In this document: positions 9,902-32,630 of the stretch, one piece after another | Numbering within the stretch: position 1 is the stretch's first letter | Layout: every line of letters begins with the position of its first letter | Source: Pseudonocardiaceae bacterium | GTDB taxonomy: Bacteria > Actinomycetota > Actinomycetes > Mycobacteriales > Pseudonocardiaceae | Reading direction: 5' to 3' | DNA: 64,000 bases | Assembly (NCBI GenBank): GCA_036503065.1 | Contig: DASXXM010000151.1 | Location: forward strand, 2,539 to 66,538 | Notes under the pieces: model-generated | The model's database searches: none | The model's input: only the letters and a program-made list of their open reading frames with translations | What the model was told of the DNA's origin: nothing | Translations under genes and position numbers: made by a program

Positions 9902-9986
9902 CTGGTGCCCTCCGGTCGTCCAGCAGTGCGGCGCATCCGCAACGTATCGTTTCGTGCTTCGTTCGGCAAATCTCGTTCGGTCCTAA

Positions 9987-12611: not shown

Positions 12612-12613
12612 CC

Positions 12614-13801
12614 GTGACTCATCCGCTGTCGGACATGCAGGAGTCCATGCTGGTCCACGAGGCGATCGAGGGGCGGCCGATCTACAACGCCCCGCTGTGC
12701 TTCGACATCGAGGGCGACATCGACGCGGACGCGTTGCGCCGGGCCTTCGAGTCGGTGGCGCGACGCCATCCGATCCTGTTGTCGACCTACCAGTTGGACA
12801 CGGGTCTTGCGCTCGTCGGCGCGGCAACACCACCCGATCTCGTTGCGCCGCAACGGTGGGCCGACTTCTGGACTCAGCAGTTCGACCTGGCACGGGAACC
12901 GCCGGTGCGGCTCGGCCTGACATCCGACGGCGACCACCACACGTTCGGCATGTGCGTCCACCACGTGGCGGGCGACTCGTGGTCGGTCGACATACTGCTG
13001 CGTGACCTTGGCACCGCGTACAACGCGCTGGCCAGGGGCCGCGAGCCCGGCTGGCCAACCGAAGCGCCCAGTTTCTTCGACTACGCGGACGCGGAACGAG
13101 CCCAGCGGTACGACACGAGTTGGTGGTCGCGGTCGCTGGCCGGGATCGAACCGCCGCCCGGCCCGCGAGCGGACCCGCCACCCGAGGACGAACGCGGCCG
13201 CTGCCACCGTGTCCGGCTGCCGCTGGGCACCACGCACACCCAGGGCGTGCGCAGGCTGGCACGGACGATGCGCGTGTCGCCCGCCGCGATCCTGTTCACC
13301 GCGGTCAGCATGACGGTGGACGCGCCGGTAGTCGGCCTGCCGGTCGTGTTGCGCGACACGACAACGCAGCAGCGGATCGTAGGCCCGTTGCTGAACATGC
13401 TGCCCGTCGTCACCCCGCAGGGTGCGCCGACGAACCGGGCCAAACTGATCCAGCGCCACGCCGAAGCGATGGAATCCGCGATCCAGCACAAGAACGTGCC
13501 GTACTCACGGATTCTGGCCACCCGGCCGGCGAGCGGTCAGCTGTTCCTGCACGCGGTCAACGTCGACCCGGTCATCCCACGGCTCGGGCTCGCCGGAACG
13601 CGCGTGACACCGGTGCCGGTGCCCCCGGTCTGGGCGATCTGGCCCGCACTGTGGGACTTCTCCTGGCCCACCGTGGGCAACCTGCGAGGCGACCTGGCCG
13701 TCTCGGCAAGCGACTTCGCCCCGGAACAGTTGCCGGCACTGGTCGACGGCTTCCTGGCAAGCCTCGAGTGGCTCCTGGAAAAAGACGAATGGTCAGGTTG
13801 A
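12614..13801 (+). CDS. stand-alone NRPS condensation domain protein
   Basis: 395 aa. GTG start lies 2 nt after the upstream stop. Catalytic motif is CVHHVAGDSWS (HHxxxD). Confidence 0.8.
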   Translation: MTHPLSDMQESMLVHEAIEGRPIYNAPLCFDIEGDIDADALRRAFESVARRHPILLSTYQLDTGLALVGAATPPDLVAPQRWADFWTQQFDLAREPPVRLGLTSDGDHHTFGMCVHHVAGDSWSVDILLRDLGTAYNALARGREPGWPTEAPSFFDYADAERAQRYDTSWWSRSLAGIEPPPGPRADPPPEDERGRCHRVRLPLGTTHTQGVRRLARTMRVSPAAILFTAVSMTVDAPVVGLPVVLRDTTTQQRIVGPLLNMLPVVTPQGAPTNRAKLIQRHAEAMESAIQHKNVPYSRILATRPASGQLFLHAVNVDPVIPRLGLAGTRVTPVPVPPVWAIWPALWDFSWPTVGNLRGDLAVSASDFAPEQLPALVDGFLASLEWLLEKDEWSG

Positions 13802-16349: not shown

Positions 16350-17561
16350 TCATGAGGACGGCAGCAGGCCGATACGCAGGGCGCCGAGTTCCGGGTTCCA
16401 GCCGCTGTTCGTCTCGAACTCGGCGGCGCGCTGCTGCACGTCGTTCTTGATGTCGTCGATGCTGGGGATCGGCGAGCTGAAGAACTTCTCCACCGCCTTG
16501 ATGTCGCTGGAGATCTTGCTGATCGCGGCGGAGATCTTGTTGAAGATCGAGATGATCGTGCTGATCACCGAGATGATCGTGCGCACCGTCTTGTATATCT
16601 TGTACAACTCCCAGATATCCAGGACGATCGCGCCGATGTCCGCCACCGGGTCCTCGGGGCCGCCGCCCGCGGCCTCGATCGCCGCGGTGCCGCCAAGGAT
16701 CGTCGCGGCCTCTTCGGCGAGCTGCTTGACGCCCTGCTCCAGCAGATCGTTGATCGCCTTGAGCACCGCGAAAACCAGCACGCAGACGGCGTCGTAGCCG
16801 TCCTTGTACAGCTTCGCGGCGACCTTGGCCGCGTCCCCGAGACCACCGATTCCCATGTGCCAGCGAAACAGGTAGGAGTCGAATGCCGAGCCCGCGTCCC
16901 CGGTCCATTCGGAGGCCAGCCGCCAGGTGCCTTTGCGCAGGGTGCCGGCGACGGTGTAACTGGCGTCGCTGAGCTGTTGGTAGGACTCCTCGAGGTACTT
17001 CAGCCGCCCGTACTCGCCGACGATGGGCTTGAGAATCAACTCGACAAGGCTTTGTCCGGTCACGAACTTGAAGAGGATCTCGGCGCCCTTGAGCTCGCCG
17101 CCGATCAGCTTGCCGCTGGCCAGCTTGAGCTGTATCTGGATGTTCTTGGCGGTGTCGTCCCCCGCACTGTCCGGTTCCTTGAGCGTGATCGGGGCGTCGT
17201 CGAAGGTGCCGAGCTTGGGCAGGTTCGGCAGGACGGAGAAGCCCGGAATCGCGGCGGGATAGGCGTTCTTCAGGTTCTGCTCGGCCTGCGCGTCACCGCG
17301 TAAGTAGGTGTCGCGCGACTGGAGGATCTTGCTCGACACGCCGGTCATGCCGGACTGGCACTGGGTGTATCTCGGGTGGAAGAACCCGGCTGCCTCGGTG
17401 ACCAGGCCGCGCAACGGTTCGAGGAGCCCGTCGAGGCCGTCCGTTGTGGCGCACTCCTTGCCGGCCCAGTCCGCCAACTGGCCCAGGTCGCCGCCCTGCT
17501 TGAGCACGAGCCCGGAGTACGACGTGAAGTCGCCGCTCGGCGGCGCGTTGAATCCACCCAT
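16350..17561 (-). CDS. WXG-motif protein, T7SS-substrate-like, with Ile/Ser/Lys-rich amphipathic C-terminal region
   Basis: 403 aa starting from MGGFNAPPSGDF, inside the 474-aa ORF. The internal sequence LASEWTGDAGSAFDSYLF is a WxG-type helix-turn-helix signature. It is followed by the hydrophobic helix VCVLVFAVLKAI and then RTIISVISTIISIFNKISAAISKISSDIKAVEKFF. Confidence 0.65.
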   Translation of the reverse strand: MGGFNAPPSGDFTSYSGLVLKQGGDLGQLADWAGKECATTDGLDGLLEPLRGLVTEAAGFFHPRYTQCQSGMTGVSSKILQSRDTYLRGDAQAEQNLKNAYPAAIPGFSVLPNLPKLGTFDDAPITLKEPDSAGDDTAKNIQIQLKLASGKLIGGELKGAEILFKFVTGQSLVELILKPIVGEYGRLKYLEESYQQLSDASYTVAGTLRKGTWRLASEWTGDAGSAFDSYLFRWHMGIGGLGDAAKVAAKLYKDGYDAVCVLVFAVLKAINDLLEQGVKQLAEEAATILGGTAAIEAAGGGPEDPVADIGAIVLDIWELYKIYKTVRTIISVISTIISIFNKISAAISKISSDIKAVEKFFSSPIPSIDDIKNDVQQRAAEFETNSGWNPELGALRIGLLPSS

Positions 17562-17574
17562 TTTTGACCCCCAC

Positions 17575-17808
17575 TCACCCGATCGTCCCTTCCGGAACGA
17601 CAGCGTTGCACACGTCGAGGACAGCGGCAACCGAATCGGACCATTCACAGCCGAGCCGCACGCGGCTCGCCGGTGGCATGACGCTGGGGATCCGGCCGGG
17701 TTCGTCCGCGTCACCACTGCCGCGGCGCTCGACCGCGGTACCGATGGCCGAGCGGTTACCTTTCCATGGATCAAAGCCCACGAATTGTTCCGGCATATCA
17801 GTTCGCAT
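17575..17808 (-). CDS. small hypothetical protein, first gene of the WXG-motif operon
   Basis: 77-aa ORF (alternative start MPEQF at 17796). It ends 13 nt before the 17561 start and has moderately high GC3. No recognisable motif. Confidence 0.4.
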   Translation of the reverse strand: MRTDMPEQFVGFDPWKGNRSAIGTAVERRGSGDADEPGRIPSVMPPASRVRLGCEWSDSVAAVLDVCNAVVPEGTIG

Positions 17809-19268
17809 TTCTCGATCCGATCACCGGACTACCGGTCGGCCTGATCAACCTGGCCCTGCCGCTGGAGTGCGCTCGCCGGGGCTTGTGTGCCGCGGTAGGG
17901 TGGTCGAGGCGTCTGGGGGGGTGCATTGGTTTGGCCGGGGGGATTCGTGGGCGCGCGCTGCGGCAGGCGCGGGGGATTGAGCCGAGCGTTGTTCTGCTCG
18001 TCGCCGGGCTGGCCCTCGCACTGTACCTGCAGGGCGCATTCGTCCCGAGGACACAGCTTCTCGTCGCGGTGCCGCTGGTCGTCGGTGTGCTGCTCGCGCC
18101 TCGTCTACCGGCGGTCACGCGGCAGGACCTGCCGGTCGTGCTCGCCGCCGCGGGGCTGGCTGGCTGGGCGGTGGCCGACGGCGCGCTGACCGGCCATCTG
18201 CTTGCCGGATTCCGGTATCTGCTGCTGATCGCGGGTGTGCTCGTGCTGGCCGGCGTCTGCCGGCAACTGTCGGGTACGGCGCGCGGCACGCTGGTCAACG
18301 GCCTGCTCGTGGTCTGCGCCGCGGTGGCCGCGCTGGGCTGGTTCGGCGTGGTGGTGCATCACCCGGCGTGGGGTTTCCTGAGTGCCGGCATGTGGCGCGC
18401 GTCGTCGACCCTGACCTACCCGAACGCGACCGCGGCCGTGCTGGCCATGGCCGCGCTGGTCTGCCTGGCACTGCGTACCGGCGATCCGGCCGCACGATGG
18501 CCGGGTGGCACGGCCACCATCCTGCTCACCGGATTGGCGGCCACGCTGAGCCGGGCCGGCCTTGGCGGGTTGGCGATCGGACTGATCGTGCTCGGTATCG
18601 GCATCGGCTGGCGGCCGCTGCTGCGGGGTGCGGTCGGACCGCTGCTCGGCGCCCTGGTCGCGACGACCGGCCTGCTGCCCTCGATCACCGCGCACACGCC
18701 CACCGCGGTCACCATCGTGGTCGCAGGCCTTGCGGCGGCGGCCGGGTTGGTCATCGGCAGCCGCGTCGGTGCCACCCGCATCGTGCTGGTCGTCTTCGTT
18801 GCCGGACTGGCCGCCGCGCTGGTGCTGCTGGCCGGGCGACTGGCATCGCGGTTCACCTTCGACTCGCCGGACCGGTGGGGTTCCTTCCGCGCCGCCTGGG
18901 AGGTGTTCCTGCGTCACCCGGTGACCGGCGCCGGTCCCGGCATCGACCAGTTCGTGCTCGCTCAGGCGACGGGCGACACCAACGTGTTCCTGTTCGTACA
19001 CAACGAATATCTCCAGGTTCTCGCCGAGTTGGGCATCCTCGGCGGCATCCTGCTCGTCACCTTCCTCGCGCTGGTCGTGCTGCGACTGTGGCGGCGCGAC
19101 GCGGGCGCGCTCGGTGTCGGCGGCATCGCCGCACTGGCGGCGCTCCTGCTGCACGCCGGGTTCGACTTCGTGTGGCACATCCCGGCCGTCCCACTGCTCG
19201 CGGCGGCCTTCTTGGGCGTCGCCATGCCCCAAGCCAGCTCAACCACAACGGAACCGAAAGGGAAATGA
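17766..19268 (+). CDS. O-antigen ligase (Wzy_C)-like polytopic membrane protein
   Basis: More than 10 TM segments. It has the Wzy_C-type stretches LTGLAATLSRAGLGGLAIG and VHNEYLQVLAELGILGG. The start is uncertain because the 5' end overlaps the divergent operon; the in-frame TTG at 17931 is a plausible start. Confidence 0.7.
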   Translation: MDQSPRIVPAYQFAFLDPITGLPVGLINLALPLECARRGLCAAVGWSRRLGGCIGLAGGIRGRALRQARGIEPSVVLLVAGLALALYLQGAFVPRTQLLVAVPLVVGVLLAPRLPAVTRQDLPVVLAAAGLAGWAVADGALTGHLLAGFRYLLLIAGVLVLAGVCRQLSGTARGTLVNGLLVVCAAVAALGWFGVVVHHPAWGFLSAGMWRASSTLTYPNATAAVLAMAALVCLALRTGDPAARWPGGTATILLTGLAATLSRAGLGGLAIGLIVLGIGIGWRPLLRGAVGPLLGALVATTGLLPSITAHTPTAVTIVVAGLAAAAGLVIGSRVGATRIVLVVFVAGLAAALVLLAGRLASRFTFDSPDRWGSFRAAWEVFLRHPVTGAGPGIDQFVLAQATGDTNVFLFVHNEYLQVLAELGILGGILLVTFLALVVLRLWRRDAGALGVGGIAALAALLLHAGFDFVWHIPAVPLLAAAFLGVAMPQASSTTTEPKGK

Positions 19269-19269
19269 A

Positions 19270-19719
19270 TTGATCCGCAACAGCAGAATCAAGGCGGCCA
19301 TCGCCGCCGTCACGATCCTCGGGGCAACGGGAGCCGCACTGCTCGTCCCCGCCTCCCCCGCGGTCGCCTTCAGTTCCGGCGGCCTGGTACTCGACGTCGC
19401 GATTCAGTCGCCCGCACATCTCCTCGCCAACGGGGCCGCGATCGCCCAGCCCGTCCAATACACCTGCTTCGGCACGAACAATGCCCAGGTAGAGGTGAGC
19501 GTGACCGAACGGGTGAGCGGCGGCGCCATCGCCACCGGCAACGGGATACTGTCCAACCCGGTCTGTACCGGTGAAATCCAGACCACCAAGATCGACATAG
19601 TGGCATCCGGAGCCAGGGCATTCACCAAGGGAAGCGCCTTCGCGACCGCCAGCATCTTCGGCTGCGCCAACTTCTGCGGGAATGAGACCGACAACCGCAC
19701 GATCGCAATCCAGCGCTAG
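19270..19719 (+). CDS. small secreted protein, hypothetical
   Basis: TTG start lies 2 nt after the upstream stop and is preceded by AAGGGAAA. Signal peptide is IRNSRIKAAIAAVTILGATGAALLVPASPAVA/FSS. The mature part has 4 Cys. Confidence 0.55.
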   Translation: MIRNSRIKAAIAAVTILGATGAALLVPASPAVAFSSGGLVLDVAIQSPAHLLANGAAIAQPVQYTCFGTNNAQVEVSVTERVSGGAIATGNGILSNPVCTGEIQTTKIDIVASGARAFTKGSAFATASIFGCANFCGNETDNRTIAIQR

Positions 19720-19744
19720 CATTTCCGGTATGCATTAACCGGCG

Positions 19745-19776
19745 CCGGTCGGGTGGGGTATCGCACACCCGACCGG
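19745..19776. terminator. bidirectional hairpin between convergent genes
   Basis: CCGGTCGGGTG, a 10-nt loop, then CACCCGACCGG. This gives a perfect 11-bp stem. Confidence 0.6.
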
Positions 19777-19843
19777 TCAGGGCTGTGGACGGGCCAACGG
19801 TGCGGGAGGGGTTGGCCTCGAACCCGGTCGACCACCCGAACTC

Positions 19844-20440
19844 CTAACGGAACTCGGCGATCAACTCGTCCGACGCGAGAACGCGGCCGAAGAACCTGCC
19901 GATCACCGATTCGGTCGCGCGCTGCGACGCATCGCTCAGGCCGCCGGTCGCGTCGCCGACGAACACGACCCGGAAGTCGCGCATGTACGCACCGCGCGCC
20001 GTCGAGTCGCAGCAGATCTCGGTGAGCGTGCCGACGATCACGACGGTGTCGATCACGCGCGGCCCGGACACGGTCGCCAGCACGGTTTCCAGGCACGTGT
20101 TGTGGAACGCGTCGTACCGGTGCTTGCGGACCACGACGTCACCGGACTCGGGCGCCAACTCGTCGACGATGCGCGCGCCGTCGCTGCCAGCGCGCAGGCC
20201 CGCCGTCCGCAACACCGGGTTGTAGGCGGTCTCCAGCGGCGAGATGTCGAACGTGTCCAACAGGATGTGCTCGGTGTAGATCACCGGCATGCCGACCGCC
20301 CGGCATGCCGCGACGACACGCCGCATCGTCGGCAACCGGTCCAGCGCCATCGGCACGTGCATGGGATGTCCCGGCAGGACGAAGTCGTTCTGCATGTCGA
20401 TGACGAGCAGCGCCGACCGCCGCGAATCAACCCGCCACAT
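19844..20440 (-). CDS. isochorismatase-family cysteine hydrolase
   Basis: Starts at MWRVDSRRSALLVIDMQNDF. The catalytic Cys context is VIVGTLTEICCDSTARGA. Confidence 0.8.
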   Translation of the reverse strand: MWRVDSRRSALLVIDMQNDFVLPGHPMHVPMALDRLPTMRRVVAACRAVGMPVIYTEHILLDTFDISPLETAYNPVLRTAGLRAGSDGARIVDELAPESGDVVVRKHRYDAFHNTCLETVLATVSGPRVIDTVVIVGTLTEICCDSTARGAYMRDFRVVFVGDATGGLSDASQRATESVIGRFFGRVLASDELIAEFR

Positions 20441-20510
20441 GGCCCACCTCCGGACTATGACGCGCACCGCGGGCGTAGACCAGCGGTCCATGTCAGGCTA
20501 CCCTGACAGC

Positions 20511-21233
20511 ATGAGCAAGGATGTGGACCCGTGGCAGGAGGGTCAGCAGGCGTGGGGACGACTCGCGGGGTGGTCCCGGGACACGCCCGCCGCAACCGGT
20601 CCCCAGGACGATGGTGACCGTGCTTTGACGGCGCTGACCGATATCGGCGTGATCCGGCGATTCCTCGATCAGGTCGAGTTCGAGGCGGTGCGGACCGCGC
20701 GCAGACAGCGCAAGTCATGGTCGGAGATAGCGATCCGGCTGGGCGTGACGCGACAGTCGGCGTGGGAGCGGTGGCGCGACGTGGACGAGGCGGCATCGTC
20801 GACCGGACCGGCATCTGTGCTCGCGACCGAAGCCGACGCGGTGGCACGGGCCCGGCTGGTGTTGGGCGGCTCTCCCACCGGGCCGGACGACGTGAGCATG
20901 CGGGCGCGGGAAATGCGCAGACGCTCGTTCGTGTTGGTGCCCAACGTGGTCGGCATGTCCTGGGACGACGCCCATGCCGCGTTGCAGCGCAGTGGACTCG
21001 TCGCGGTAGGACCGGACCCGGACGGCCCGCCGATGACCGCAACGGGTTGGCCGCAGAGCGTGGTGACCGACCAGAGCCCGGAGTCCGGCGCGACGGTACC
21101 CCCCGGCGCCCACGTGACCCTGTGGGTGGACCGAGGCGGCGGCTCCGGCGTACGCGAACCACGACGCCCCAAGCCGGACCCGAAGACAGGCCGCAAGATG
21201 TGGGACGAGGTAACCGACGAGGCGGTGAGCTGA
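20511..21233 (+). CDS. HTH plus C-terminal PASTA domain protein, no TM segment
   Basis: Starts at MSKDVDPWQEG. The HTH-like segment is SWSEIAIRLGVTRQSAWERW. The PASTA-like segment is VPNVVGMSWDDAHAALQRSGLV...VVTDQSPESGATVPPGAHVTLWV. Confidence 0.7.
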   Translation: MSKDVDPWQEGQQAWGRLAGWSRDTPAATGPQDDGDRALTALTDIGVIRRFLDQVEFEAVRTARRQRKSWSEIAIRLGVTRQSAWERWRDVDEAASSTGPASVLATEADAVARARLVLGGSPTGPDDVSMRAREMRRRSFVLVPNVVGMSWDDAHAALQRSGLVAVGPDPDGPPMTATGWPQSVVTDQSPESGATVPPGAHVTLWVDRGGGSGVREPRRPKPDPKTGRKMWDEVTDEAVS

Positions 21234-21300
21234 CCACCCAGGATGACGCGAATCTCGCACTTGCCATAGCAAACAGCAAATCCGCATCCAACACCCCATC

Positions 21301-21332
21301 GTGCACGGGTGATCAGACAATCACCCGTGCAC
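21301..21332. terminator. hairpin downstream of the PASTA gene
   Basis: GTGCACGGGTGAT, loop cagaca, then ATCACCCGTGCAC. This is a perfect 13-bp stem with no T-tract. Confidence 0.5.
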
Positions 21333-21507
21333 CGCCACCACACCACGCATGCTATAGCAAACAGCACACACAATCACCAAGCATCGCCACAGCACCCGCT
21401 ATAGCAAATAGCATGCAGCAAAATTCGTGCGGCACAACATGACATCCGCCACTGAACAGGTCGGCCGCCTGCCGCCTGCCCTAGTTTCCGCGGATGCCAC
21501 ATGCCAT

Positions 21508-21558
21508 AGCAATCAGCAATCAGCAATCAGCAATCAGCAATCAGCAATCAGCAATCAG
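21508..21558. repeat. heptanucleotide microsatellite (AGCAATC) x7
   Basis: Counted directly in the sequence. Confidence 0.95.
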
Positions 21559-21710
21559 ACGAGCATCGCAGGAGCAGCAGCTATAGCAAATAGCATGCAG
21601 AGGTGTGGGCGATCATGCTATAGCAAATAGCATGCAGCAAATCCGCGTCACAACGTGATGTCCACTGATGGACAGGGCGGCCGCCTGCCTCCCGCGCCCG
21701 GGCGACGCCG

Positions 21711-21754
21711 ATGCCACACATGCCACATGCCACATGCCACATGCCACATGCCAC
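21711..21754. repeat. heptanucleotide microsatellite (ATGCCAC) x6, first unit offset by AC
   Basis: Counted directly in the sequence. Confidence 0.95.
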
Positions 21755-22025
21755 AGCAAATAGTAATCATCCGAGCGTCGCCGCAGGTGCTCACAGAAGG
21801 ACTCGCCGTGGGCGGTCAGTTCGGCGTCCAGCGCGGTCCAGGAACCACGCAGTTCGGGATCGTCGGTACGCGCCGGTCCCGCGATGTCGCCGAACCGGGC
21901 GGACAAGGTCTAGGTGATCATGCTATAGCAAATAGCATGCAGTGAATTCCGCGTCACAACGTGGTGTTCGCTACTGGACAGGACAGGGCAGGGCAGCCGC
22001 CTGCCTCCCGCGCCTGGCGACGCCG

Positions 22026-22053
22026 ATGCCATATGCCATATGCCATATGCCAT
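22026..22053. repeat. heptanucleotide microsatellite (ATGCCAT) x4
   Basis: Counted directly in the sequence. Confidence 0.95.
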
Positions 22054-22162
22054 AGCATGCAGCAATCTCCGGATGTCGCTGCGGAGATGCTATAGCAAAT
22101 AACATACAGCAAATTCGTGCGTCACAATGTCGCGTCCGCTGCTGGCGGGGCGGTTGTCTGTC

Positions 22163-23672: not shown

Positions 23673-23880
23673 TCAGTTGATGCTGAATGCCAGTGCCCCG
23701 AGGCCGCCGTCGACCGTCAGGGTCTGGCCGGTCACGCACGACGCGTCTTCGCTGGCCAGGAAGCTTACGCGGGGCGGCGACCTAGTCAAGTCGAGCGGGC
23801 CGTCGCATCGGCACCCCGCCCTGCGGACCGACGCCTCGAAATGCCCGAGATCACGAGTCCGGTCCGGGTGCGCGCGCCGG
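23673..23880 (-). pseudogene. 3' relic of an SDR gene, paralogous to 24092..24865
   Basis: It ends FLASEDASCVTGQTLTVDGGLGALAFSIN, compared with FLASDGASYVTGQTLTVDGGLAASAFSIT in the intact gene. The DNA of 23673-23790 aligns by eye to 24092-24210. No N-terminal part is present. Confidence 0.7.
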
Positions 23881-23883
23881 ACG

Positions 23884-24099
23884 ATCGCCGATGTGAGTGC
23901 CGTGGCCGACCCGAACACCGGTGTCGCCGTCTTCGACAGCACCTCGTCCGGTGGCTTGTCGGGCTGGTTGGTGTTCGGTGGCACCAGTGTCGCGTCGCCG
24001 CTCATCGCCACCGTGTACGCGTTGGCGGGCAACGCATCCTCGGTCACCTACGCTTCGTTCCCCTACTCACACACGTCCTGGGCACCGCCGGTCAAGTGA
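23884..24099 (+). pseudogene. C-terminal fragment of an S8/S53 serine peptidase
   Basis: ADVSAVADPNTGVAVFDSTSSGGLSGWLVFGGTSVASPLIATVYALAG contains the catalytic-serine motif GTSxAxP. No upstream catalytic Asp/His (or Glu/Asp) region is present. Confidence 0.65.
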
Positions 24100-24865
24100 T
24101 ACTGAATGCCGAGGCCGCGAGACCGCCGTCGACCGTCAACGTCTGACCGGTGACGTACGACGCGCCGTCACTTGCCAGGAATCGAACACAGGCCGCGATC
24201 TCCTCGACCCGACCCGGCCGCCGCATCGGTACCTTCCTGCGGGCCGAATCCTCGAAGTGCCCCACCTCGTGCGTGAGATCCGTTCGAACCAATCCGGGAG
24301 CGACCGCGTTCACCGTGATTCCCTTGGGTGCCATCTCGACAGCCAATGCCCGGGTCAGGCCGGCGAGGCCGGATTTGGCCGCGACGTAATTGGCAACCCC
24401 GGGTAGCGCCTGTTGCGCGAGGATCGACGTAATATTGATGATGCGGCCGTGCCGTGCCCGCACCATCGGACCGAGCGCTCGCGCCGACGCCCGGTAAGCG
24501 GCCGTCAGGTTCACGTCCAGAACCTGATGCCATTCCTTGTCCGCCATCCCGAGCAACAAGCCATCGGCCCGGACACCGGCGTTGTTCACCAGGACCGCCA
24601 CGTGCCCGAAGTATTCTTCCAGTGCGTCGAACGACTGATCTATCGCCTGTGGATCACCCAGGTCACACGCCATCGCGATCGCGGTACCGCCGGACAGTTC
24701 GATATCGGACGCGACCGACTCGGCGGCTTCACGATTCCGTACGAAACCAACCGCCACCGGCCGGCCGGCCGCGGCCAGTTCTCGCGCGATCGCCGCTCCG
24801 ATACCCCGGGAACCGCCGGTCACGAAGGCACAGCCCGCTGATCGGACGTCCTGCGGGTCCACCAC
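24092..24865 (-). CDS. short-chain dehydrogenase/reductase (FabG/BprA-like ketoreductase)
   Basis: 257 aa. Motifs are TGGSRGIGAAIA, NNAG and YVAAKSG (YxxxK). Confidence 0.85.
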   Translation of the reverse strand: MVDPQDVRSAGCAFVTGGSRGIGAAIARELAAAGRPVAVGFVRNREAAESVASDIELSGGTAIAMACDLGDPQAIDQSFDALEEYFGHVAVLVNNAGVRADGLLLGMADKEWHQVLDVNLTAAYRASARALGPMVRARHGRIINITSILAQQALPGVANYVAAKSGLAGLTRALAVEMAPKGITVNAVAPGLVRTDLTHEVGHFEDSARRKVPMRRPGRVEEIAACVRFLASDGASYVTGQTLTVDGGLAASAFSIT

Positions 24866-24881
24866 TGTCTGCTCGCTTTCG

Positions 24882-25502
24882 TCAGGTGATCAGTGGCCAG
24901 AGTTGCTCGGCGGCGGAGCCGCTGTCGACGAAGTGAATGGCATGCCACCCAGCGGCTTCGGCGCCGACGCAGTTGTCAAGCACGTCGTCGATCAGCACGC
25001 ACTCAGCGGGCCGGACCCCTGCCCGTATGGCCGCAAGACTGAAGATCTCCTTGCTCGGCTTGCGAGCGCCCACCTCGAAGGACAGCACCACGTGATCGAA
25101 CAACTCGTCCGCATCGACCATTCGGCGCCAGTACTTGTCCCAGGTCGGGACCATGTTGGACATCATGCTGACACCAACACCCTGATGCCGTACCGCGCGT
25201 AGTGTGTCGATCCATTCCTGATTCGCCGGGCGGCCGTCGAACCACGCCTCGCCGAAACTGCTGACGTGGATGGGCCTGCCCAATGCCTCGGACATGTACC
25301 CCAACCATTCCTGCTCGCCGACCAGTGGGGTGTCCAACGGCTCAAGAATGTCCGACGTGCCATATCGGGCGCTGACCGTCGCCGCGGCACGCAGGAACTC
25401 GCTCCGGTCGAGCCCGTGCGTTGCGCAGAACGCGGCAAGACTGTCCGCGACCGGAGGGGTCAGGACGCCGCCGAAGTCGGTCCACACCGCACTGACGTTC
25501 AT
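24882..25502 (-). CDS. HAD-superfamily hydrolase (possible phosphatase)
   Basis: 206 aa. Motif I is WTDFGGVL; the second Asp of DxD is replaced by Gly. Late motifs are KPSKEIF and LIDDVLDN. ATGA overlap with the AfsA-like gene. Confidence 0.75.
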   Translation of the reverse strand: MNVSAVWTDFGGVLTPPVADSLAAFCATHGLDRSEFLRAAATVSARYGTSDILEPLDTPLVGEQEWLGYMSEALGRPIHVSSFGEAWFDGRPANQEWIDTLRAVRHQGVGVSMMSNMVPTWDKYWRRMVDADELFDHVVLSFEVGARKPSKEIFSLAAIRAGVRPAECVLIDDVLDNCVGAEAAGWHAIHFVDSGSAAEQLWPLIT

Positions 25503-26497
25503 GACTGCGCCAGAATTCGGGTCATGGTCAGCTCGACCTCGGCGACGACGTTGCCGTCCTGCTCGATGACAACGGACATGTCGAGCGAGGAATCATCGGG
25601 AGCGGGCGGCGTGGCGCGAACGGTGACGGTCGAGTCCAGTTCCGCGAATCGCATGAACCTGCCGGCCAGCCTGGTGAGGTGCCAGTCCGCGATCGCGCGG
25701 CCCGATGCGGTCACCGCCGCCAGGGTCAACTGTCGGGCGGCCTCGGTGAGAATCTGCATCGTCACGTGGTCGTACGAATGGTCGAAGAGCGCGCGATTCG
25801 CCAGCGGCAGTGCCACCCGCGCCGACACCTCGCCGGCAGTATGCGCCAGACCCGCCAACACGACATTCAGCCGATCGCGCCTGCCCACCGTGTACGGCGC
25901 GACCAGTTCCGGGTCCCGCTGATCGACCAGGTCGGCCGTCCACGGCGGTGGATCACCCCGCTGCGCGGTACGGAGCAGGTCGAGTTCTTCATAGGCCAGG
26001 AACAAACTGCTGGCCTGCAGGGTGGCGATCTGCTGGCCCTTGACGAAGACCCGCTGCTGGCAGGTACCGGAGCGCGGCCGGCCGCGGCGCACGCGCGTCC
26101 AGGTGAACTCGCTGTCGACGCGCAACCCGATGACCGGGTCGTCACCGCGCCACGTTCCCGGCACGGCAACCCGCAGATCCCAGTCTTCGGTGATCAGCAC
26201 GACGCCCGTGGACACACCCAACTCGTAGGCGGTCGCAAGCCCCGCCTGCCGGCAGACCTCCATCATGAGAAGCGGATCCACCGCCGATTCGCTACCGAGG
26301 TGGTCGTTGAAGTACCGGTGACAGGTCGGCAGTTGCGCGGCAAGTGCGACTCGCCTGTCGCCCAGTGGCCGCACGTCGGTGATGAACACCTCGGAAACCG
26401 CTGCCCGGTGCACCATACGGCGATCGATCGTGCGATCGAAGGACAGCGCGATGTCCTCGTCGAGCTGCCATTCCGCTGCGACGCTGACGTCCGTCAC
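25499..26497 (-). CDS. AfsA/ScbA-family butenolide/gamma-butyrolactone synthase (double hot-dog)
   Basis: GTG start at 26497, 1 nt after the upstream stop. The two AfsA-repeat signatures are MVHRAAVSEVFITDV...CHRYFNDH and FDHSYDHVTMQILTEAARQL. Confidence 0.8.
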   Translation of the reverse strand: MTDVSVAAEWQLDEDIALSFDRTIDRRMVHRAAVSEVFITDVRPLGDRRVALAAQLPTCHRYFNDHLGSESAVDPLLMMEVCRQAGLATAYELGVSTGVVLITEDWDLRVAVPGTWRGDDPVIGLRVDSEFTWTRVRRGRPRSGTCQQRVFVKGQQIATLQASSLFLAYEELDLLRTAQRGDPPPWTADLVDQRDPELVAPYTVGRRDRLNVVLAGLAHTAGEVSARVALPLANRALFDHSYDHVTMQILTEAARQLTLAAVTASGRAIADWHLTRLAGRFMRFAELDSTVTVRATPPAPDDSSLDMSVVIEQDGNVVAEVELTMTRILAQS

Positions 26498-26498
26498 G

Positions 26499-26876
26499 CT
26501 ACGCGCCGCCGAACATGTACAGCGCGGTGATCTTGCCGGCGTCATCGCGGATGAGGAAGTCCCGACCCGTTCGGAGGATGTTGCCGCTGGCGTCCGCGAT
26601 GTCCCACTCCTGCTGGATCGAATCGTGGTTGGTCACCGTGTTACCGAAGCCGAAGACGAAACCCGCCCCTTGGATCTGCTCCTTGTTCACTTGGGCGATG
26701 TTCGCCTCGATCTCGTCGATGCCCGAGAAGCGGAGGTTCTCCCCCGCCACGTGGTGCACGGCGGATTCGGCGAAGACGTTGTGCACCAAGGCATGACGAC
26801 GTTCATCGTCGTGCGTCCGCCAGGCCTCGAGAAGATCACCCATGAGTTCTTTGGCTTCCATTTTCTTTCCTTTCAT
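26499..26876 (-). CDS. NTF2/SnoaL-like fold protein
   Basis: About 125 aa (MKGKKMEAKELMGDLLEAW...). It is a clear paralogue of 27710..28069: they share AVHHV, IDANIAQV/IEANIAQV and GRDFxxxDDxGxIxALYMF. Confidence 0.7.
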   Translation of the reverse strand: MKGKKMEAKELMGDLLEAWRTHDDERRHALVHNVFAESAVHHVAGENLRFSGIDEIEANIAQVNKEQIQGAGFVFGFGNTVTNHDSIQQEWDIADASGNILRTGRDFLIRDDAGKITALYMFGGA

Positions 26877-27298
26877 GTCAGGGCCGAGTAGAACCGCTCC
26901 AGCATCGGTATGTCGGACAGGTGGGTGTCGATGGTGGCGATGCGACCGGACCGGAGCGTGAAGACCAGGGCCAGCCATTCGTCGAGTTCGACGGGCCGTA
27001 CCGCCGTGTTGTGAATGGTCGCGACGATGCTGCGGTAGCCGATGAGCATGTGCTGTGGATCGACCGTAAGCTTGGCGGCATCGATTACCTGAGCCCTGGC
27101 CACCACGGCCTCCCGCCCGACCGCGAGTCCGGAGATCCGCGAATTGCCGGGCAGATACCAGACAACATCCGGATCAAGCAGTTCGGCCACCCGGTCCCAG
27201 TCCTGCCGCCTTGACGCGACCAGCATCTCCGTGACGACGGCGCGGTCTGCCCCAGTCACGATTTCCGTCTCTGTTGCCACGATGGCATCTTGTGACAT
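26873..27298 (-). CDS. NTF2/SnoaL-like fold protein (ketosteroid-isomerase-like)
   Basis: 141 aa with DPDVVWYLPGNSRISG. ATGA overlap with the downstream gene. Confidence 0.65.
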   Translation of the reverse strand: MSQDAIVATETEIVTGADRAVVTEMLVASRRQDWDRVAELLDPDVVWYLPGNSRISGLAVGREAVVARAQVIDAAKLTVDPQHMLIGYRSIVATIHNTAVRPVELDEWLALVFTLRSGRIATIDTHLSDIPMLERFYSALT

Positions 27299-27322
27299 AC
27301 CGGTACCCCTTCGATTCGATTA

Positions 27323-28065
<743 letters not shown>

Positions 28066-28069
<4 letters not shown>

Positions 28070-29484
28070 TGGTTCGTAACTTCCTTCACCGTTGTTGATG
28101 GGACAAGCATCTCGGCGTTCGCCGCCGGAGCAACCGGATTCGTCCGGGCTCCTGGAAGGATTGTAGCCACAACGAGCGACCCGACGCCCGCCACGCAAGC
28201 CGCCGCGACCATCGGGGCCGTCAGATTGTGAAAGCCTGTCGACGCCACACTTCCCATGATCGCGATTCCCAGAGCCCCACCGAGGTTCATCGCCACGTCG
28301 GCGACAGCGGAGCCGGCTGCCGACTGCTCGGCCGATGCGGCGCCTACGATCGATTCCACCGAGGTGGGAGCGCCGAATCCGATGCCGAGTCCGAGTACCC
28401 CGAGTGCGATGAGCACCCGCAGGCCCGACGGAGGCCCGCCGATCGCCATAAGAACCATGGACGCGGCGACCAGCAACGGGCCGAGCGCCGACACCGGTCC
28501 GAGTCCGAACCGCTGTACCAACTTGGGTGCTTGCGGCGCGACAAGAATCACCGTGCACATCCCGAGCAGGTGCAGCCCGGCGATCAGGGGACGGTCGTGC
28601 AAGGTGAGCTGCAAATACTGGGTTACTACGAACAAACCCCCGGTCACCCCGAAGAAGATGGTCGAGATCGTCACGAGCGGTCCGCCGAACAAGCGGTTGG
28701 AGAAGACGGCGTGACTGAGCATCGGGGTGCGCGTGCGCCGCTCCCACCAGATGAAGGTGGCCAGGACAGCAGCGCCACCAACGATGAGTGCCAGCGTGCG
28801 GGCCGACGTCCAGCCCTGTGACGGCGCCTCGATGATGCCGCCGACGAGCGCAAGCGAGCCGACGACCGAGAGCACCAGGCCAGGAATGTCCAAGCCGAGA
28901 TGGTTCTCGTTGCGGGATTCGGGGATCAGCAGCAGGCATCCGACGATCGCGGCGGCGATGATCGGAATATTGATCAGGAAGACCGAGCCCCACCAGAAGT
29001 TCTGCAGCAACAGTCCCCCGACGATCGGGCCCAACGGGACGCCCAGGGTGGCGACGCCCACCCAGAGCCCCATGGCCTTGGCCCGCTCCGCAGGTGGGAA
29101 CACGTCCCGCAGGATCGCGAGGGTGCAGGGCATGATCATGGCCGCACCCAGCCCCATACCGGCTCGGGCCGCGATCAGCATTTCCGGTGACCGGGCGAAG
29201 GCCGCTGCCGATGAGGCGGCGAGAAAGACCAGCAGACCGACGAGAAACCCGCGCCGACGACCGAAACGGTCCGCGAACGCGCCGAAGAAGAGGATCGGCG
29301 CGGCGAAGGCCAGCGCGTAGGCATCCACCGTCCACTGCAGCTGCCCGGTGGACGCGCCGAGCTCGGTTTTGATCGACGGCACCGCCATGGTGATGATCAG
29401 ACTGTCCAGAGCCGTGATGATCAGCGCAAGACACATGACGCCGAGGATCGCCCAACGGCGTGGGTGACCCGTGGTCGAGTTCAT
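28066..29484 (-). CDS. MFS efflux transporter, 14-TM DHA2 (EmrB/QacA)-like
   Basis: 472 aa. It has LDSLIITMAVPSI and the FGRRRGFLVG loop motif. Confidence 0.85.
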
Positions 29485-29526
29485 AGTGGCCTTTCCCGCA
29501 ACGATCAGCTCCTACAACGATCAAAG

Positions 29527-29568
29527 TTGACGTTGTCAATCTAGCGGGGTCGTGTTGACGGCGTCAAC
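29527..29568. promoter_or_regulatory. two palindromic candidate TetR operators in the MFS/TetR divergent region
   Basis: TTGACGTTGTCAA at 29527-29539 and GTTGACGGCGTCAAC at 29554-29568. Both have the form TTGAC-N3-GTCAA. Confidence 0.5.
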
Positions 29569-29585
29569 TACGTACCCTGCATGAT

Positions 29586-30200
29586 GTGAGTCAACCCACG
29601 GGCGATGTAGGCGCCGCGCTGGTGGCTGCGGCCAGCGACCTGCTGACGCGCGGCGGTCCCGAGTTCGTGACCCTGCGCGCGGTCGGCAGGGCAACCGGCG
29701 TGTCGCGCACGGCGCCGTACCGCCACTTCACCGACAAGGATGACCTGCTCAGTGCGGTAGCCGCGGAGAGCATGAATCGTCTCACCGAGGCGATGCGGCA
29801 CGGGGCGGCCGACGAGGCCGCGGGAGGGACGCCACTTTCCCGGGCCTGCCTCGGCTACGCGAGAGCCGCGATGGAGCGACCGGCCCACTATCGCCTCATG
29901 TTCGGCGACTTTCCGATCAACAGGCCGAGTGCGGAGCTCGAACGCGCGGCGGACGAGTGCGCCAAGGTGCTCTACGACCTCGTCGCCGAAGCCCAGAGCG
30001 AGGGCGTTCTCCCCGCGGTCGACGTACGCGAAGTCGGCACGTTGCTGTGGGCGGCACTGCATGGCTTGGTGGACCTCACACTGACTCGCCATCTCCATGA
30101 ACCGCGCACTGTCGACGGCGTCGATGCCATGCCGACCCTTGTCGCGGTTGCCATACAGAACTGGGTCACCGGCAAAGCCGCTCCCCACGTCCGATCGTAA
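29586..30200 (+). CDS. TetR/AcrR-family transcriptional regulator
   Basis: 204 aa. The HTH is TLRAVGRATGVSRTAPYRHFTDKDDLL. It is divergent from the efflux pump. Confidence 0.85.
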   Translation: MSQPTGDVGAALVAAASDLLTRGGPEFVTLRAVGRATGVSRTAPYRHFTDKDDLLSAVAAESMNRLTEAMRHGAADEAAGGTPLSRACLGYARAAMERPAHYRLMFGDFPINRPSAELERAADECAKVLYDLVAEAQSEGVLPAVDVREVGTLLWAALHGLVDLTLTRHLHEPRTVDGVDAMPTLVAVAIQNWVTGKAAPHVRS

Positions 30201-30342
30201 CGCGCTTCGACGGACGCCTCCCGTATTTGGCCACTGTTCGCGTGCAACCCATGGACGCGTTCCGTCGGTCGCAACGAAACCTGGGACTTCCCGTATCGTC
30301 GCCACTGCTCCGATGGAGCCATGGACGAAGGGAAGCCAAAAA

Positions 30343-31296
30343 ATGATGCGGAGAACAAGTCTGGCCGGCCTCGACGTGTCGGCACAGGGACTCGGCTGCA
30401 TGGGTATGAGCGAATGGTATGGCCCGACCGACTGGGACCGGTCGATCTCGACGATCCGGCGCGCTATCGACCTTGGCGTAACGCTTTTCGACACCGCCGA
30501 CATCTATGGTGCCGGTCACAACGAGGTGCTCGTCGGCCGTGCGATCACCGGGCACCCCGACGCCGTGCAGATCGCGACGAAGTTCGGCATCGATCGCAGC
30601 GCGGGCGACGGCAATCGAGTGCATCGCGGCGAGGCCGCCTACGTCAAGCGGTCGTGCGATGCGTCGCTGCTGCGACTCGGTATCGACACGATCGACCTGT
30701 TCTACCTGCACCGACCGCCGGACACCGCAGAAATCGAGGAGACGGTCGGCGCGATGGGTGAGTTGGTGGCCGAAGGCAAGGTGCGCCACCTAGGACTGTC
30801 TGATGTGGATAGTAGTCTGCTGCGCCGGGCACACGCGGTGCACTCGATTGCAGCAGTGCAGACCGAGTACTCGTTGTGGAGCCGCAAGCCCGAGTCGACG
30901 CTGTTGAACACTATGCGCGAGCTGGGTGTCGGGCTGGTGCCGTACGCGCCGCTCGGACGCGGCTTCCTTGCGGGCAGCGTGACCCGTGATTCGCTGGTGG
31001 ACAGTGACATCCGCACATCGCGACCCGCCATGCAGTCCTGGCAGGCGATCCCGTCTATCGCACAGGTCGTGGACTCGATCGCCGAGGCACAGGCGGTGAC
31101 ATCGGCGCAAGTCGCGCTCGCCTGGGTTTATGCCCAGGAGGTCCGCTGGGGCGTCCCCATCGTGCCGATTCCGGGTACGAAACGGGTGGCCTGGCTGGAG
31201 CAGAATGTGCGGGCGATGGACGTATCGCTCACGGACAGTGAGCGCGCCACTCTCGACGGTATTCCGGATCGGTCCGCGGCCGCACAGCAGGCGTAG
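30343..31296 (+). CDS. aldo/keto reductase
   Basis: Starts at MMRRTSLAGLDVSAQGLGCMGMS. Motifs are DTADIYG, IDLFYLHRPD-type and GLSDV. Confidence 0.85.
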   Translation: MMRRTSLAGLDVSAQGLGCMGMSEWYGPTDWDRSISTIRRAIDLGVTLFDTADIYGAGHNEVLVGRAITGHPDAVQIATKFGIDRSAGDGNRVHRGEAAYVKRSCDASLLRLGIDTIDLFYLHRPPDTAEIEETVGAMGELVAEGKVRHLGLSDVDSSLLRRAHAVHSIAAVQTEYSLWSRKPESTLLNTMRELGVGLVPYAPLGRGFLAGSVTRDSLVDSDIRTSRPAMQSWQAIPSIAQVVDSIAEAQAVTSAQVALAWVYAQEVRWGVPIVPIPGTKRVAWLEQNVRAMDVSLTDSERATLDGIPDRSAAAQQA

Positions 31297-31349
31297 CGGA
31301 AGGCCCGGCACGGCTTCGCGGCGTGACGAACGGCACGTTTGGCAGCAAG

Positions 31350-31378
31350 TTGACACCGTCCACGTCACTCGTTAGCGT
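31350..31378 (+). promoter_or_regulatory. sigma-70-like promoter candidate
   Basis: TTGACA, 17 nt, then TAGCGT (TANNNT). It lies about 70 nt upstream of the decayed ACP copy. Confidence 0.35.
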
Positions 31379-31444
31379 GGATCGTGCTGGAAGCTTGGGG
31401 AGCGGCAGCTAGGGGGAGATCAGCATATCGGGAGATGCAGATCA

Positions 31445-31944
31445 ATGTCGATTGATTCGCGCGCATACGAACATAAGACTATTCACGACGTCGTGGTCAA
31501 TCAGATCGCAGCCATCGGCAGGACACCGAGTTAATTTCACGTGACGCGACTCGTCGGACGCGTATAGAACGGCCACATTCGGCCAGGATCTCTGCAAACG
31601 GCTGCACTTCGGCCGGGCGGGAATTCAGTGACCAGACGGGTGGTCGTCACCGGCATCGGCGCGGTCACCCCCTCGGCATCGGCGCCGACACGCTGCACGC
31701 GGCTGCCGTACGCGGCGACAACGGAATTGTCGACGGCATGGGCCGATGTGCGGAATTCGACGGCCAGAAGATGCTCGGCCGCCGCGAAGCGCACCGGATG
31801 GACCGGTTCTGCCAGCTCGCCGTCGCGGCCGTCGATCGGGCCGGCTGGGCCGGCTGGGCCGGCTCGCCGCCGGTGCCGGCGCAGCGGGTGCCGTGTGTGA
31901 TCGGCACCGCGATCGGCGGGCTCAACACGATCGAGTCGCAGCTG
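31445..31944 (+). pseudogene. decayed duplicate of the ACP gene and the first ~320 nt of the KAS II gene
   Basis: MSIDSRAYEHKTIHDVVVNQIAAIG resembles MSAALSGYDRKSVEEFVIEQVEATG. The stretch 31600-31944 aligns by eye to 32600-32945, including the GGGAATTCAGTGA junction. The frame is lost after VVVTGIGAVTP by a 1-nt deletion, and there is a GGGCCGGCT triplication. Confidence 0.75.
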
Positions 31945-32103
31945 GCCACGCCCAGAAGCAGTCCGATCAATCAATGTTCAACCAACTCACCGCGTGGCTG
32001 CGAAATGCGCGTGCACACGATGGCATACGAAGGCAACCTCGACGTCACGAGATACACGTTGACTCCGCACGAAGTGCCGGCTACGCTCGTTCCCAAGCTC
32101 ATA

Positions 32104-32308
32104 TTCATGGGGATTCACTGGGGAATCAACCGCGACCGTGTCTTGAGTCGTGTGGGACAAGCAGATAATTCGTGATTTACCGAATTAGTGTCACTGAATC
32201 GCTGTCTACGGGCAACAGGGGGAACTGAGGCTCGGCTCCGACGGGGTGTGTTCATCGGGTGATTTCATTGGGGAAATCGACCACCAGGGTGTACTGAGTC
32301 GTGCTGAC
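32104..32308 (+). repeat. two ~55-nt direct repeats in the low-GC leader of the AfsA/FAS operon
   Basis: Copy 1 (32104-32158) is TTCATGGGGATTCACTGGGGAATCAACCGCGACCGTGTCTTGAGTCGTGTGGGAC. Copy 2 (32251-32308) is TTCATCGGGTGATTTCATTGGGGAAATCGACCACCAGGGTGTACTGAGTCGTGCTGAC. Confidence 0.6.
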
Positions 32309-32366
32309 GCACGGCTGGTTTGTGGTTGACCAATTTCTGAAAGCGACGAGCGACAAGGGGATAGCT

Positions 32367-32630
32367 ATGTCTGCTGCACTGTCCGGGTACGACCGAAAGT
32401 CGGTCGAGGAATTCGTCATCGAGCAGGTCGAGGCGACCGGCGCCGACCCCGACCTGATCGCCACCACGGCCACCCTCGAATCGCTCGGCCTCGACTCGCT
32501 GGACGTGGTTGAACTCAGCCAGGGCGTCAAGAAGCAGATGGGGATCCCGGTGAGCCCGAAGGACTTCGTCGACGCGCTGACCATCTCCGACGCGATCGCG
32601 GTCATCTGCCGTCAGGCGGGTATTCAGTGA
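32367..32630 (+). CDS. acyl carrier protein
   Basis: 87 aa, with AAGGGG upstream as RBS. The phosphopantetheine site is LGLDSLDVVEL. Confidence 0.85.
   Translation: MSAALSGYDRKSVEEFVIEQVEATGADPDLIATTATLESLGLDSLDVVELSQGVKKQMGIPVSPKDFVDALTISDAIAVICRQAGIQ

Follow-up and report, generated by a model that had tools for sequence, protein, structure and literature searches.

A heptanucleotide-rich tandem repeat array between two convergent genes of an uncultured Pseudonocardiaceae bacterium, probably grown from a short shared 3' spacer

The window analysed here, a stretch of 64,000 nucleotides of contig DASXXM010000151.1 from a Pseudonocardiaceae bacterium, carries between the 3' ends of two convergent genes a block of about 0.9 kb (929 bp), with a repeat array at 21263-22162. 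The gene on the left, with its stop codon at 21231-21233, codes for a protein with a helix-turn-helix (HTH) and a PASTA domain, orthologues of which (84-88% identity) are present in the related loci L007-L010. The gene on the right codes for a major facilitator superfamily (MFS) transporter, whose assignment to the OFA (oxalate/formate antiporter-like) family follows the naming of its relatives. Judged by the orthologues of these two proteins, the window belongs to an uncultured Pseudonocardiaceae lineage of soil-type metagenome-assembled genomes (MAGs) and metagenomes. The base composition of the block shows a marked strand skew, and its GC content is 52-60% compared to 68.8% for the whole window. 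The block is built around a 21-nt motif, GCTATAGCAAATAGCATGCAG (the 21-mer), which heads larger units, named A to D, and also occurs alone. From left to right, the features are as follows:

20511-21233, forward strand: left flanking gene P0121 (240 aa; 100% identical to the window HTH-PASTA protein), N-terminal HTH and C-terminal PASTA domain (Pfam PASTA, E 2e-12)
21263-21283, forward strand: degenerate motif copy GCCATAGCAAACAGCAAAT before the hairpin, with a polymorphic ACAGCAA tract (one copy in the window, three in the related contig L033)
21301-21332, no strand assigned: hairpin with a 13-bp stem, GTGCACGGGTGAT-CAGACA-ATCACCCGTGCAC, in single copy between the PASTA gene and the array
21351-21397, forward strand: second degenerate motif GCTATAGCAAACAGCACACACAATCAC plus 'tail' CAAGCATCGCCACAGCACCC, homologous to the end of unit A (repeat families D1 and D3)
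21398-21579, forward strand: unit A, with the 21-mer (21398-21418), body (21419-21493), two copies of ATGCCAY (21494-21507), seven copies of AGCAATC (21508-21558) and tail (21559-21579)
21580-21616, forward strand: solo 21-mer (21580-21600) followed by the 16 nt AGGTGTGGGCGATCAT (repeat family D2, 88% over 42 nt)
21617-21789, forward strand: unit B, with the 21-mer (21617-21637), body, five copies of ATGCCAC (21717-21755), degenerate motif (21756-21769) and tail (21770-21789)
21790-21921, reverse strand: internal fragment of a DUF3000-family gene (Pfam PF11452), about 40-44 codons, identical in L033
21922-22088, forward strand: unit C, with the 21-mer (21922-21942), body, four copies of ATGCCAT (22026-22054), degenerate motif (22047-22066) and tail (22067-22088)
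22089-22162, forward strand: unit D, proximal to the MFS gene and of putatively ancestral type, with the variant 21-mer GCTATAGCAAATAACATACAG and a body that reaches the MFS stop codon
22163-23452, reverse strand: right flanking gene P0277 (429 aa; the window MFS protein), OFA MFS transporter (Pfam MFS_1, E 1.6e-43)

Exact copies of the 21-mer start at 21398, 21580, 21617 and 21922, and a copy with two mismatches starts at 22089, where 0 are expected in shuffled sequence. All copies are direct, contiguous and on the forward strand, with irregular start-to-start distances of 182, 37, 305 and 167 nt. The motif can be written as a palindrome, CATGCTAT-AGCAA-ATAGCATG (8-5-8), of which the 8-bp arms are present in two copies only and 5-bp arms in the others, as well as a series of three degenerate heptads (ATAGCAA ATAGCAT GCAGCAA). 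A repeat search combined with MAFFT alignment revealed that units A (21398), B (21617), C (21922) and D (22089) are homologous over about 110-130 nt and arranged head to tail, with weaker motif copies at about 21265, 21350, 21503, 21756 and 22047. A full unit consists of the 21-mer, a body of about 75 nt with the consensus CAAAWTYCGYG..CACAAYRTG..GGCCGCCTGCC.., an (ATGCCAY)n tract, a degenerate motif copy and a tail of about 20 nt. Overall, the units are 66-89% identical. Within the 64 kb, the block is the only place with the words ATAGCAA, GCTATAGC and AGCAAT.

Tandem Repeats Finder detected three arrays that are 100% perfect, namely (AGCAATC)x7.3 at 21508-21558, (CACATGC, equivalent to ATGCCAC)x5.6 at 21717-21755 and (ATGCCAT)x4.1 at 22026-22054, and no further period-7 array within the 64 kb. 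Five different heptamers are found at this one locus. The degenerate motif copy of unit A has grown into (AGCAATC)7 and, judged from the alignment, the three microsatellites fill two homologous unit positions and have since drifted apart. When the perfect tracts and the gene fragment were masked, the base identity at lag 7 was 0.329, compared to 0.265 +/- 0.016 in shuffles; since the signal survives masking, the 7-nt periodicity underlies the whole block. A first-pass annotation of this DNA, made by a model from the sequence, had described a gap of about 0.9 kb between convergent 3' ends, four exact 21-mers of which two have 8-bp arms, and four mutually homologous units, and in this it was right: the genes end at 21233 (forward) and 22163 (reverse), and the units align as above. 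Its three heptad microsatellites are all perfect, with the copy numbers given for (AGCAATC)7 and (ATGCCAT)4 intact and the uninterrupted ATGCCAC run at five copies instead of six, and the block that it called AT-rich is so only relative to the window. Across 206 kb of related loci, a period-7 array was seen in just one further place, a perfect (GTTTCCC)x6 at 6667-6709 of L001, in a locally AT-richer stretch; heptad slippage may thus be recurrent in this group of Pseudonocardiaceae.

Three further contigs, L033, L034 and L035, were reached via proteins clustering at at least 90% identity with the window PASTA and MFS proteins. L033 (JGI 3300036772) spans the upstream genes through the array up to unit D and contains every unit, every 21-mer and the DUF3000 piece, so that the number of large units is the same as in the window. 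Its flank differs from that of the window by 4 mismatches in 2384 nt (about 99.8% identity), and there are 2 substitutions within the array. The heptad tracts, compared between the two strains, have the following copy numbers:

ACAGCAA: 1 in the window, 3 in L033
CATAGCA: 1 in the window, 4 in L033 (in unit A)
AGCAATC: 7 in the window, 4 plus a 15-nt duplication in L033
ATGCCAC: 5 in the window, 8 in L033 (+21 nt)
ATGCCAT: 4 in the window, 4 in L033

The copy number is different in four of the five tracts, which means that changes in the heptad tracts outpace point substitutions by far. With head-to-tail units at one locus and a copy number that differs between close strains, the array is by definition a variable-number tandem repeat (VNTR) locus. 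The two other contigs confirm both array edges: L034 (Logan SRR11832861) matches the first 190 nt and ends in the first 21-mer, and L035, a contig of the JGI sample that also gave L033, codes for an MFS protein identical to that of L033 and starts inside the (ATGCCAT)n tract of unit C. L035 differs from L033 at two positions in the overlap, which indicates co-existing variants. All three are short-read contigs that break inside the array, and the array explains why such metagenome contigs break at this locus.

The same convergent PASTA/MFS pair is found in two independent assemblies of a sister lineage, L008 (Logan ERR10755948) and L010 (GTDB MAG CAVPCF01), with coding DNA 88-92% identical to the window and an intergenic gap of only 112 bp (CCACCCCGGCCATAACACGGGTGATCGAGCAATCACCCGTGCACCTGCTATAGAACCCAGCAACATCGTTCGGTGCAACGTGGCATCCGCTGGGGTCGGGGCGCCGGCCGCC). 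In blastn comparisons, the homology between the window and these loci stops at 21242 and resumes at 22107. The 112-bp spacer contains the hairpin and exactly one unit of about 70 nt next to the MFS stop codon. Aligned to unit D of the window, the spacer unit of L008 scores 110 (null 17.4 +/- 2.7), and aligned to the body of unit A it scores 38 (null 15.5 +/- 2.2). At the position of the 21-mer, L008 has GCTATAGAACCCAGCAAC (GCT ATAGAAC CCAGCAA), i.e. one heptad fewer and no palindrome; a duplication of one heptad would thus have created the inverted repeat GCTAT...ATAGC. The simplest reading of this comparison is that the 929-bp block is an amplified and heptad-expanded derivative of an ordinary terminator spacer, an origin that the first-pass annotation had overlooked. 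Divergence is about 34% between units A and D, about 11% between units B and C and about 30% between unit D and the corresponding unit of L008. These values suggest that duplication began at roughly the time when the two lineages separated and that the most recent duplication is much younger.

The DNA between units B and C is of a different kind. On the reverse strand, 21790-21909 matches positions 122-164 of the 175 positions of PF11452 (E 2e-8; 34.3 bits, compared to a cut-off of 25), so that the minus-strand gene fragment of about 125 bp suspected in the first pass belongs to the DUF3000 family. The best phmmer match, P0241, is 71% identical over its residues 139-179 of 200. The piece has an in-frame TAG at 21910-21912 and lacks both a start and a natural C-terminus, and no paralogue of it was found in the window or the related loci. 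The 16 nt at its 5' edge, AGGTCTAGGTGATCAT (21906-21921), recur as the AGGTGTGGGCGATCAT at 21601-21616 beside the solo 21-mer, and this shared edge suggests that the A/B junction is a remodelled copy of the B/C junction from which the interior of the fragment was lost. In Streptomyces ambofaciens, end-joining scars were shown experimentally to contain captured DNA of the own genome, from 30 bp to 18.8 kb in length (PMC5869714). The DUF3000 piece resembles such filler DNA of non-homologous end joining in being a short piece of an unrelated gene, in the same type of genome, inside non-coding DNA (PMC5869714); it differs in that the mechanism is inferred and the source DUF3000 gene is not within the window.

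The hairpin at 21301-21332 is very stable but lacks a U-tract; terminators without a U-tract are common in Actinobacteria. It has a folding energy of -24.7 kcal/mol on the forward and -26.4 kcal/mol on the reverse strand (z -6.6 and -3.1, respectively), and its L008 counterpart, kept in the 112-bp spacer of the sister lineage, -19.2 and -22.4 kcal/mol. A scan for terminator consensus sequences did not flag the hairpin; the single terminator-like site reported by the promoter and terminator scan, at 22136-22153 on the forward strand, is antisense to the MFS 3' end and within chance expectation. In the alignment, the hairpin is the only conserved element of spacer and array, and we predict that it is probably a shared two-way terminator of the PASTA and MFS genes. 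If it ends both convergent transcripts, the array merely adds about 0.8 kb to the 3' untranslated region (UTR) of the MFS gene.

Taken together, we consider it likely that the block is a lineage-specific hypervariable VNTR that arose from the short spacer between the 3' ends of the PASTA/HTH and MFS genes. The ancestral state would have been a 112-bp spacer with one hairpin and one unit, as in L008 and L010. In the lineage of the window, the unit beside the MFS stop codon would have been illegitimately duplicated head to tail, to about 3.5 copies, and the similar motif copies on either side of each unit would then have allowed unequal exchange or slippage. Duplication of a heptad, from ATAGAAC to ATAGCAA ATAGCAT, would have yielded the 'hairpin' 21-mer as a by-product, and replication slippage at heptad seeds within each unit would have given rise to the different 7-nt microsatellites; the heptad tracts continue to slip today. 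The 120-130-nt DUF3000 piece would have been captured at some point, probably as filler DNA in illegitimate or end-joining break repair, and a later partial deletion would have shaped the A/B junction, with short-patch gene conversion holding the 21-mer uniform. The array most likely has no selected function and would be surplus untranslated sequence separating the terminator hairpin from the MFS stop codon.

Several points weigh against this reading. The polarity is inferred from one sister lineage, and a collapse of the array in L008 and L010 is formally possible. The search for motif copies in the organism's own genome spans 64 kb, beyond which further copies may lie, and absence from public collections is weak evidence, since the metagenome scan for the motif missed L033. 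A further point is the uniformity of the 21-mer. Its four exact copies are identical at 21 of 21 positions, compared to 72-74% (A to B and C) and 89% (B to C) in the adjoining unit sequence, and the chance of such identity between A and B or C is about 1e-3; unit D likewise keeps 19 of the 21 positions, compared to 66-78% in its flanks. Such uniformity requires either short-patch gene conversion or selection. Between the window and L008, no part of the unit is less conserved than the 21-mer stretch, and a motif that is uniform within the array but differs between lineages bears the mark of concerted evolution and not of an old function. This suggests gene conversion, and makes a lineage-specific function the less likely of the two explanations.

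Such a function could lie in DNA binding, and the palindromic architecture of the 21-mer is typical of operators of HTH dimers. According to this explanation, the 8-5-8 palindrome would be a lineage-specific binding site for a dimeric protein, for example the HTH-PASTA protein, whose gene is directly upstream, and the array a multi-site operator, decoy or nucleoprotein platform under selection, for which the identity of the four copies within 72-89% identical flanks could be cited. However, no site with up to three mismatches was found outside the array in the 64 kb, all promoter regions included, and the sites lie between two 3' ends. The sister lineage moreover lacks the palindrome while having an HTH-PASTA protein of 87% identity, the 8-bp arms are restricted to two copies and the spacing is irregular. 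We therefore regard a selected protein-binding array as unlikely. The same irregular spacing, the lack of a nearby rep or par gene, of other sites in the 64 kb and of plasmid or phage similarity, together with the palindrome-free spacer of the sister lineage, speak against the iteron or protein-binding array put forward in the first pass. In a variant of this explanation to which we give similarly little credence, the palindrome would be a recently evolved, lineage-specific site for a DNA-binding protein such as HTH-PASTA or for a hairpin-specific enzyme, and the heptads would tune the spacing or number of sites. If true, the locus would be a newly born and fast-evolving regulatory or nucleoprotein array at a convergent gene junction of an uncultured Pseudonocardiaceae bacterium.

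A function at the RNA level, which we consider equally doubtful, would have the units transcribed as a long MFS 3' UTR or as small RNAs (sRNAs), acting on mRNA stability, as termination roadblocks or as a sponge. In favour of it, the MFS stop codon is on one side of the array and the only strong terminator-like hairpin on the other, which means that MFS read-through would probably include the array, the composition is strand-skewed, and the RNA of the whole block folds with a z of -6.6 relative to shuffles on the reverse strand. Such a low value is, however, expected from the internal palindromes and repeats, and single units fold no better than shuffles (z -0.7 and +0.8). Rfam yielded no match, neither for the whole window at the gathering threshold nor for the block at E up to 10; no compensatory pairs (0) were detected among the five unit sequences on either strand, the consensus fold reaches only -7 to -11 kcal/mol (-7.4 and -10.6), and the consensus scan found no promoter-like site in the block. 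With neither a covariance-model match nor compensatory changes, the proposal of a structured sRNA family from the first pass is not borne out.

It is very unlikely that the motif or unit is a mobile element of the type of repetitive extragenic palindromes (REPs) or miniature inverted-repeat transposable elements (MITEs) that inserted repeatedly. The extragenic space between convergent genes is a classic REP location, the motif can form a hairpin, and the solo 21-mer at 21580 stands without the rest of the unit. Nevertheless, the copies are direct, contiguous, in one orientation and without dispersed counterparts in the 64 kb. A scan with a degenerate 21-mer gave 0 matches in 185,579 species-representative genomes, the sister-lineage MAG included, and 0 in viral contigs, and a BLAST search of the block against plasmids and phages gave no match. 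The same scan of metagenomes gave two matches (L005 and L006), both by chance in AT-rich unrelated DNA. Neither terminal inverted repeats nor target duplications came out of the repeat search, which gave a single weak inverted pair at long range, and Pfam scans of about 38 neighbouring open reading frames (ORFs) revealed no transposase (RAYT-type included), integrase, Rep, Par or Cas domains. Finally, the unit is homologous to the resident spacer DNA of the sister lineage and not to inserted DNA. A decayed MITE-like element, as considered in the first pass, gains no support from these searches.

For a contingency locus, in which heptad copy number would switch a gene or a small ORF by phase variation, the strain-variable and hypermutable tracts are in place: they differ between near-identical strains, and 7-bp promoter repeats modulate hmw1A and hmw2A in Haemophilus influenzae (PMC2424069). 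The tracts of the window are, however, downstream of both genes, between two stop codons, with no gene start within reach and no promoter-like site, and the ORFs that cross them (67-97 aa) consist in part of repeat or gene-fragment sequence and have no homologues. Of the contingency (slippage) locus proposed in the first pass, the slippage thus stands and the switch falls away, since neither a promoter nor a reading frame is controlled, and we hold phase variation to be highly improbable. That the array is an assembly artefact is essentially refuted: short-read metagenome contigs do break inside it, but L033, L034 and, in part, L035, all from samples other than that of the window, reproduce its sequence outside the heptad tracts, and units of 66-89% identity are diverged enough for unambiguous assembly.

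The block also fails to resemble a promoter, a CRISPR (clustered regularly interspaced short palindromic repeats) array or a recognisable transposon, as had been noted in the first pass: the spacing is irregular, the 'spacers' are homologous to one another and neither cas domains nor a transposase are encoded nearby. The scan for tRNA and tmRNA genes was empty, hence there is no signature of an integration site. An integron-like cassette array was rejected for want of an integrase and because of the mutual homology of the 'cassettes', and a DnaA box or origin as, by eye, only unit B gives a 7/9 match.

Among known systems, the mycobacterial interspersed repetitive units (MIRU) of Mycobacterium tuberculosis are the nearest actinobacterial example. 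MIRU-VNTR loci are mostly intergenic, thought to be co-transcribed in operons and regarded mostly as neutral markers (PMC3635867). Like the heptad tracts of the window, these head-to-tail intergenic repeats of an actinobacterium change rapidly in copy number between close strains (PMC3635867). MIRUs are, however, dispersed over dozens of loci, whereas the window has one locus between convergent genes, with no unit outside 21263-22162 in the 64 kb and 0 in species-representative genomes. The window array, in addition, has two levels, with units of 170-300 nt that each contain several 7-nt microsatellites, plus a captured gene piece, and the number of its units is unchanged in the one strain compared. 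By lack of dispersal and of sequence similarity, it falls outside the MIRU family.

The contingency loci hmw1A and hmw2A of H. influenzae share with the window heptanucleotide tracts that slip in length (PMC2424069), but the tracts of contingency loci are located in a promoter or 5' coding region and switch a gene, and those of the window are flanked by two 3' ends. Intergenic tandem repeats of 7 nt are also known as TAACTGA repeats in Beggiatoaceae and as short tandemly repeated repetitive (STRR) sequences in cyanobacteria; there, one heptamer is found at more than 100 loci, in most cases shortly before a start codon (PMC4679880), in contrast to five heptamers at a single locus, with none elsewhere in the 64 kb. 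REPs, their mosaic arrangements (bacterial interspersed mosaic elements, BIMEs) and MITEs resemble the array in having a short, hairpin-forming, extragenic motif at gene 3' ends; the copies in the window differ in being undispersed, in a single orientation, free of terminal inverted repeats and target duplications and, by homology, derived from the local spacer.

The spacer between the PASTA and MFS genes has a different content in other relatives. L007 has 5.9 kb of other genes between the two, L009 has a different gene after PASTA, and in L001-L004 the homology stops at the MFS stop codon and other genes follow; the spacer is a hotspot of rearrangement and insertion. The more distant PASTA-gene loci, L011-L032, have no MFS neighbour, motif words or comparable heptad arrays. 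The insert of L007 (5346-11217) codes for an ice-binding-like protein, a GAF histidine kinase, a response regulator and two hypothetical proteins. In L004, positions 1-437, upstream of the MFS gene, match 55040-55433 and 56341-56379 of the window, about 32 kb away and in opposite relative orientation, which suggests a larger rearrangement around this gene. L010 (CAVPCF010000020.1) belongs to a GTDB representative MAG with the title 'Candidatus Melainabacteria bacterium'. At 88-92% identity to the high-GC actinobacterial window, the contig does not fit this title, which probably reflects bin contamination or mislabelling.

Pfam places PASTA/HTH, MFS, isochorismatase, Wzy_C, short-chain dehydrogenase/reductase (SDR), haloacid dehalogenase-like (HAD) and AfsA proteins in the neighbourhood. 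To the left of the array, 17828-20465 contains genes for a Wzy_C (O-antigen-ligase-like) membrane protein and an isochorismatase-family protein and a small secreted-looking ORF; this block is missing in L007 and present as a whole or in part in L009, L033 and L034, a strain-level indel beside the array. To the right, 23676-40046 (16.4 kb) is absent from L010 and L007, which join the same points by about 0.5 kb. It codes for an SDR, a HAD hydrolase, an AfsA-type gamma-butyrolactone/butenolide synthase (25499-26545), an MFS exporter and TetR, as well as an acyl carrier protein (ACP), a ketosynthase (KS), a beta-ketoacyl-ACP synthase III (KASIII) and 2-oxoacid dehydrogenase E1 alpha and beta subunits, and by its gene content it looks like a strain-specific biosynthetic island for a signalling molecule or small lipid. 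As the AfsA gene is 3.3 kb away, a gamma-butyrolactone receptor site was among the candidates for the 21-mer; it was rejected, with no copy near the island promoters and the island absent from relatives. The motif is, to our knowledge, unlike gamma-butyrolactone receptor sites.

Further away, 6544-13801 carries a stand-alone A-T protein (adenylation and thiolation domains) of the non-ribosomal peptide synthetase (NRPS)-like type, an A-MT(FkbM)-T protein with a methyltransferase domain, a condensation-domain protein, an ABC exporter and a flavin amine oxidase, by annotation a second small biosynthetic cluster in the window. An ORF of 474 aa on the reverse strand (16350-17774) has no Pfam match and contains an in-frame 21-nt tandem repeat at 16533-16582, which is also present in L007; EspC/WXG100-like genes follow the MFS gene in L003, because of which the product of this ORF may be secretion-associated. 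At 48396-53179 on the reverse strand, an Rhs/YD-repeat protein of 1343 aa (RHS_repeat, DUF6531) is encoded directly downstream of a WXG100-like gene (52424-53179), probably a polymorphic toxin locus associated with type VII secretion.

The array is thus a known kind of locus, a VNTR, whose evolutionary history is unusually clear and whose two-level structure is odd; it would be of greater importance only if the uniformity of the 21-mer reflected selection. It can be used as a high-resolution strain marker for an uncultured lineage of soil actinobacteria. It also offers a natural example of how a plain 112-bp terminator spacer may turn into nearly 1 kb of structured-looking DNA by duplication, slippage, conversion and capture, and cautions that a 'hairpin motif array' can come about in the absence of any function.

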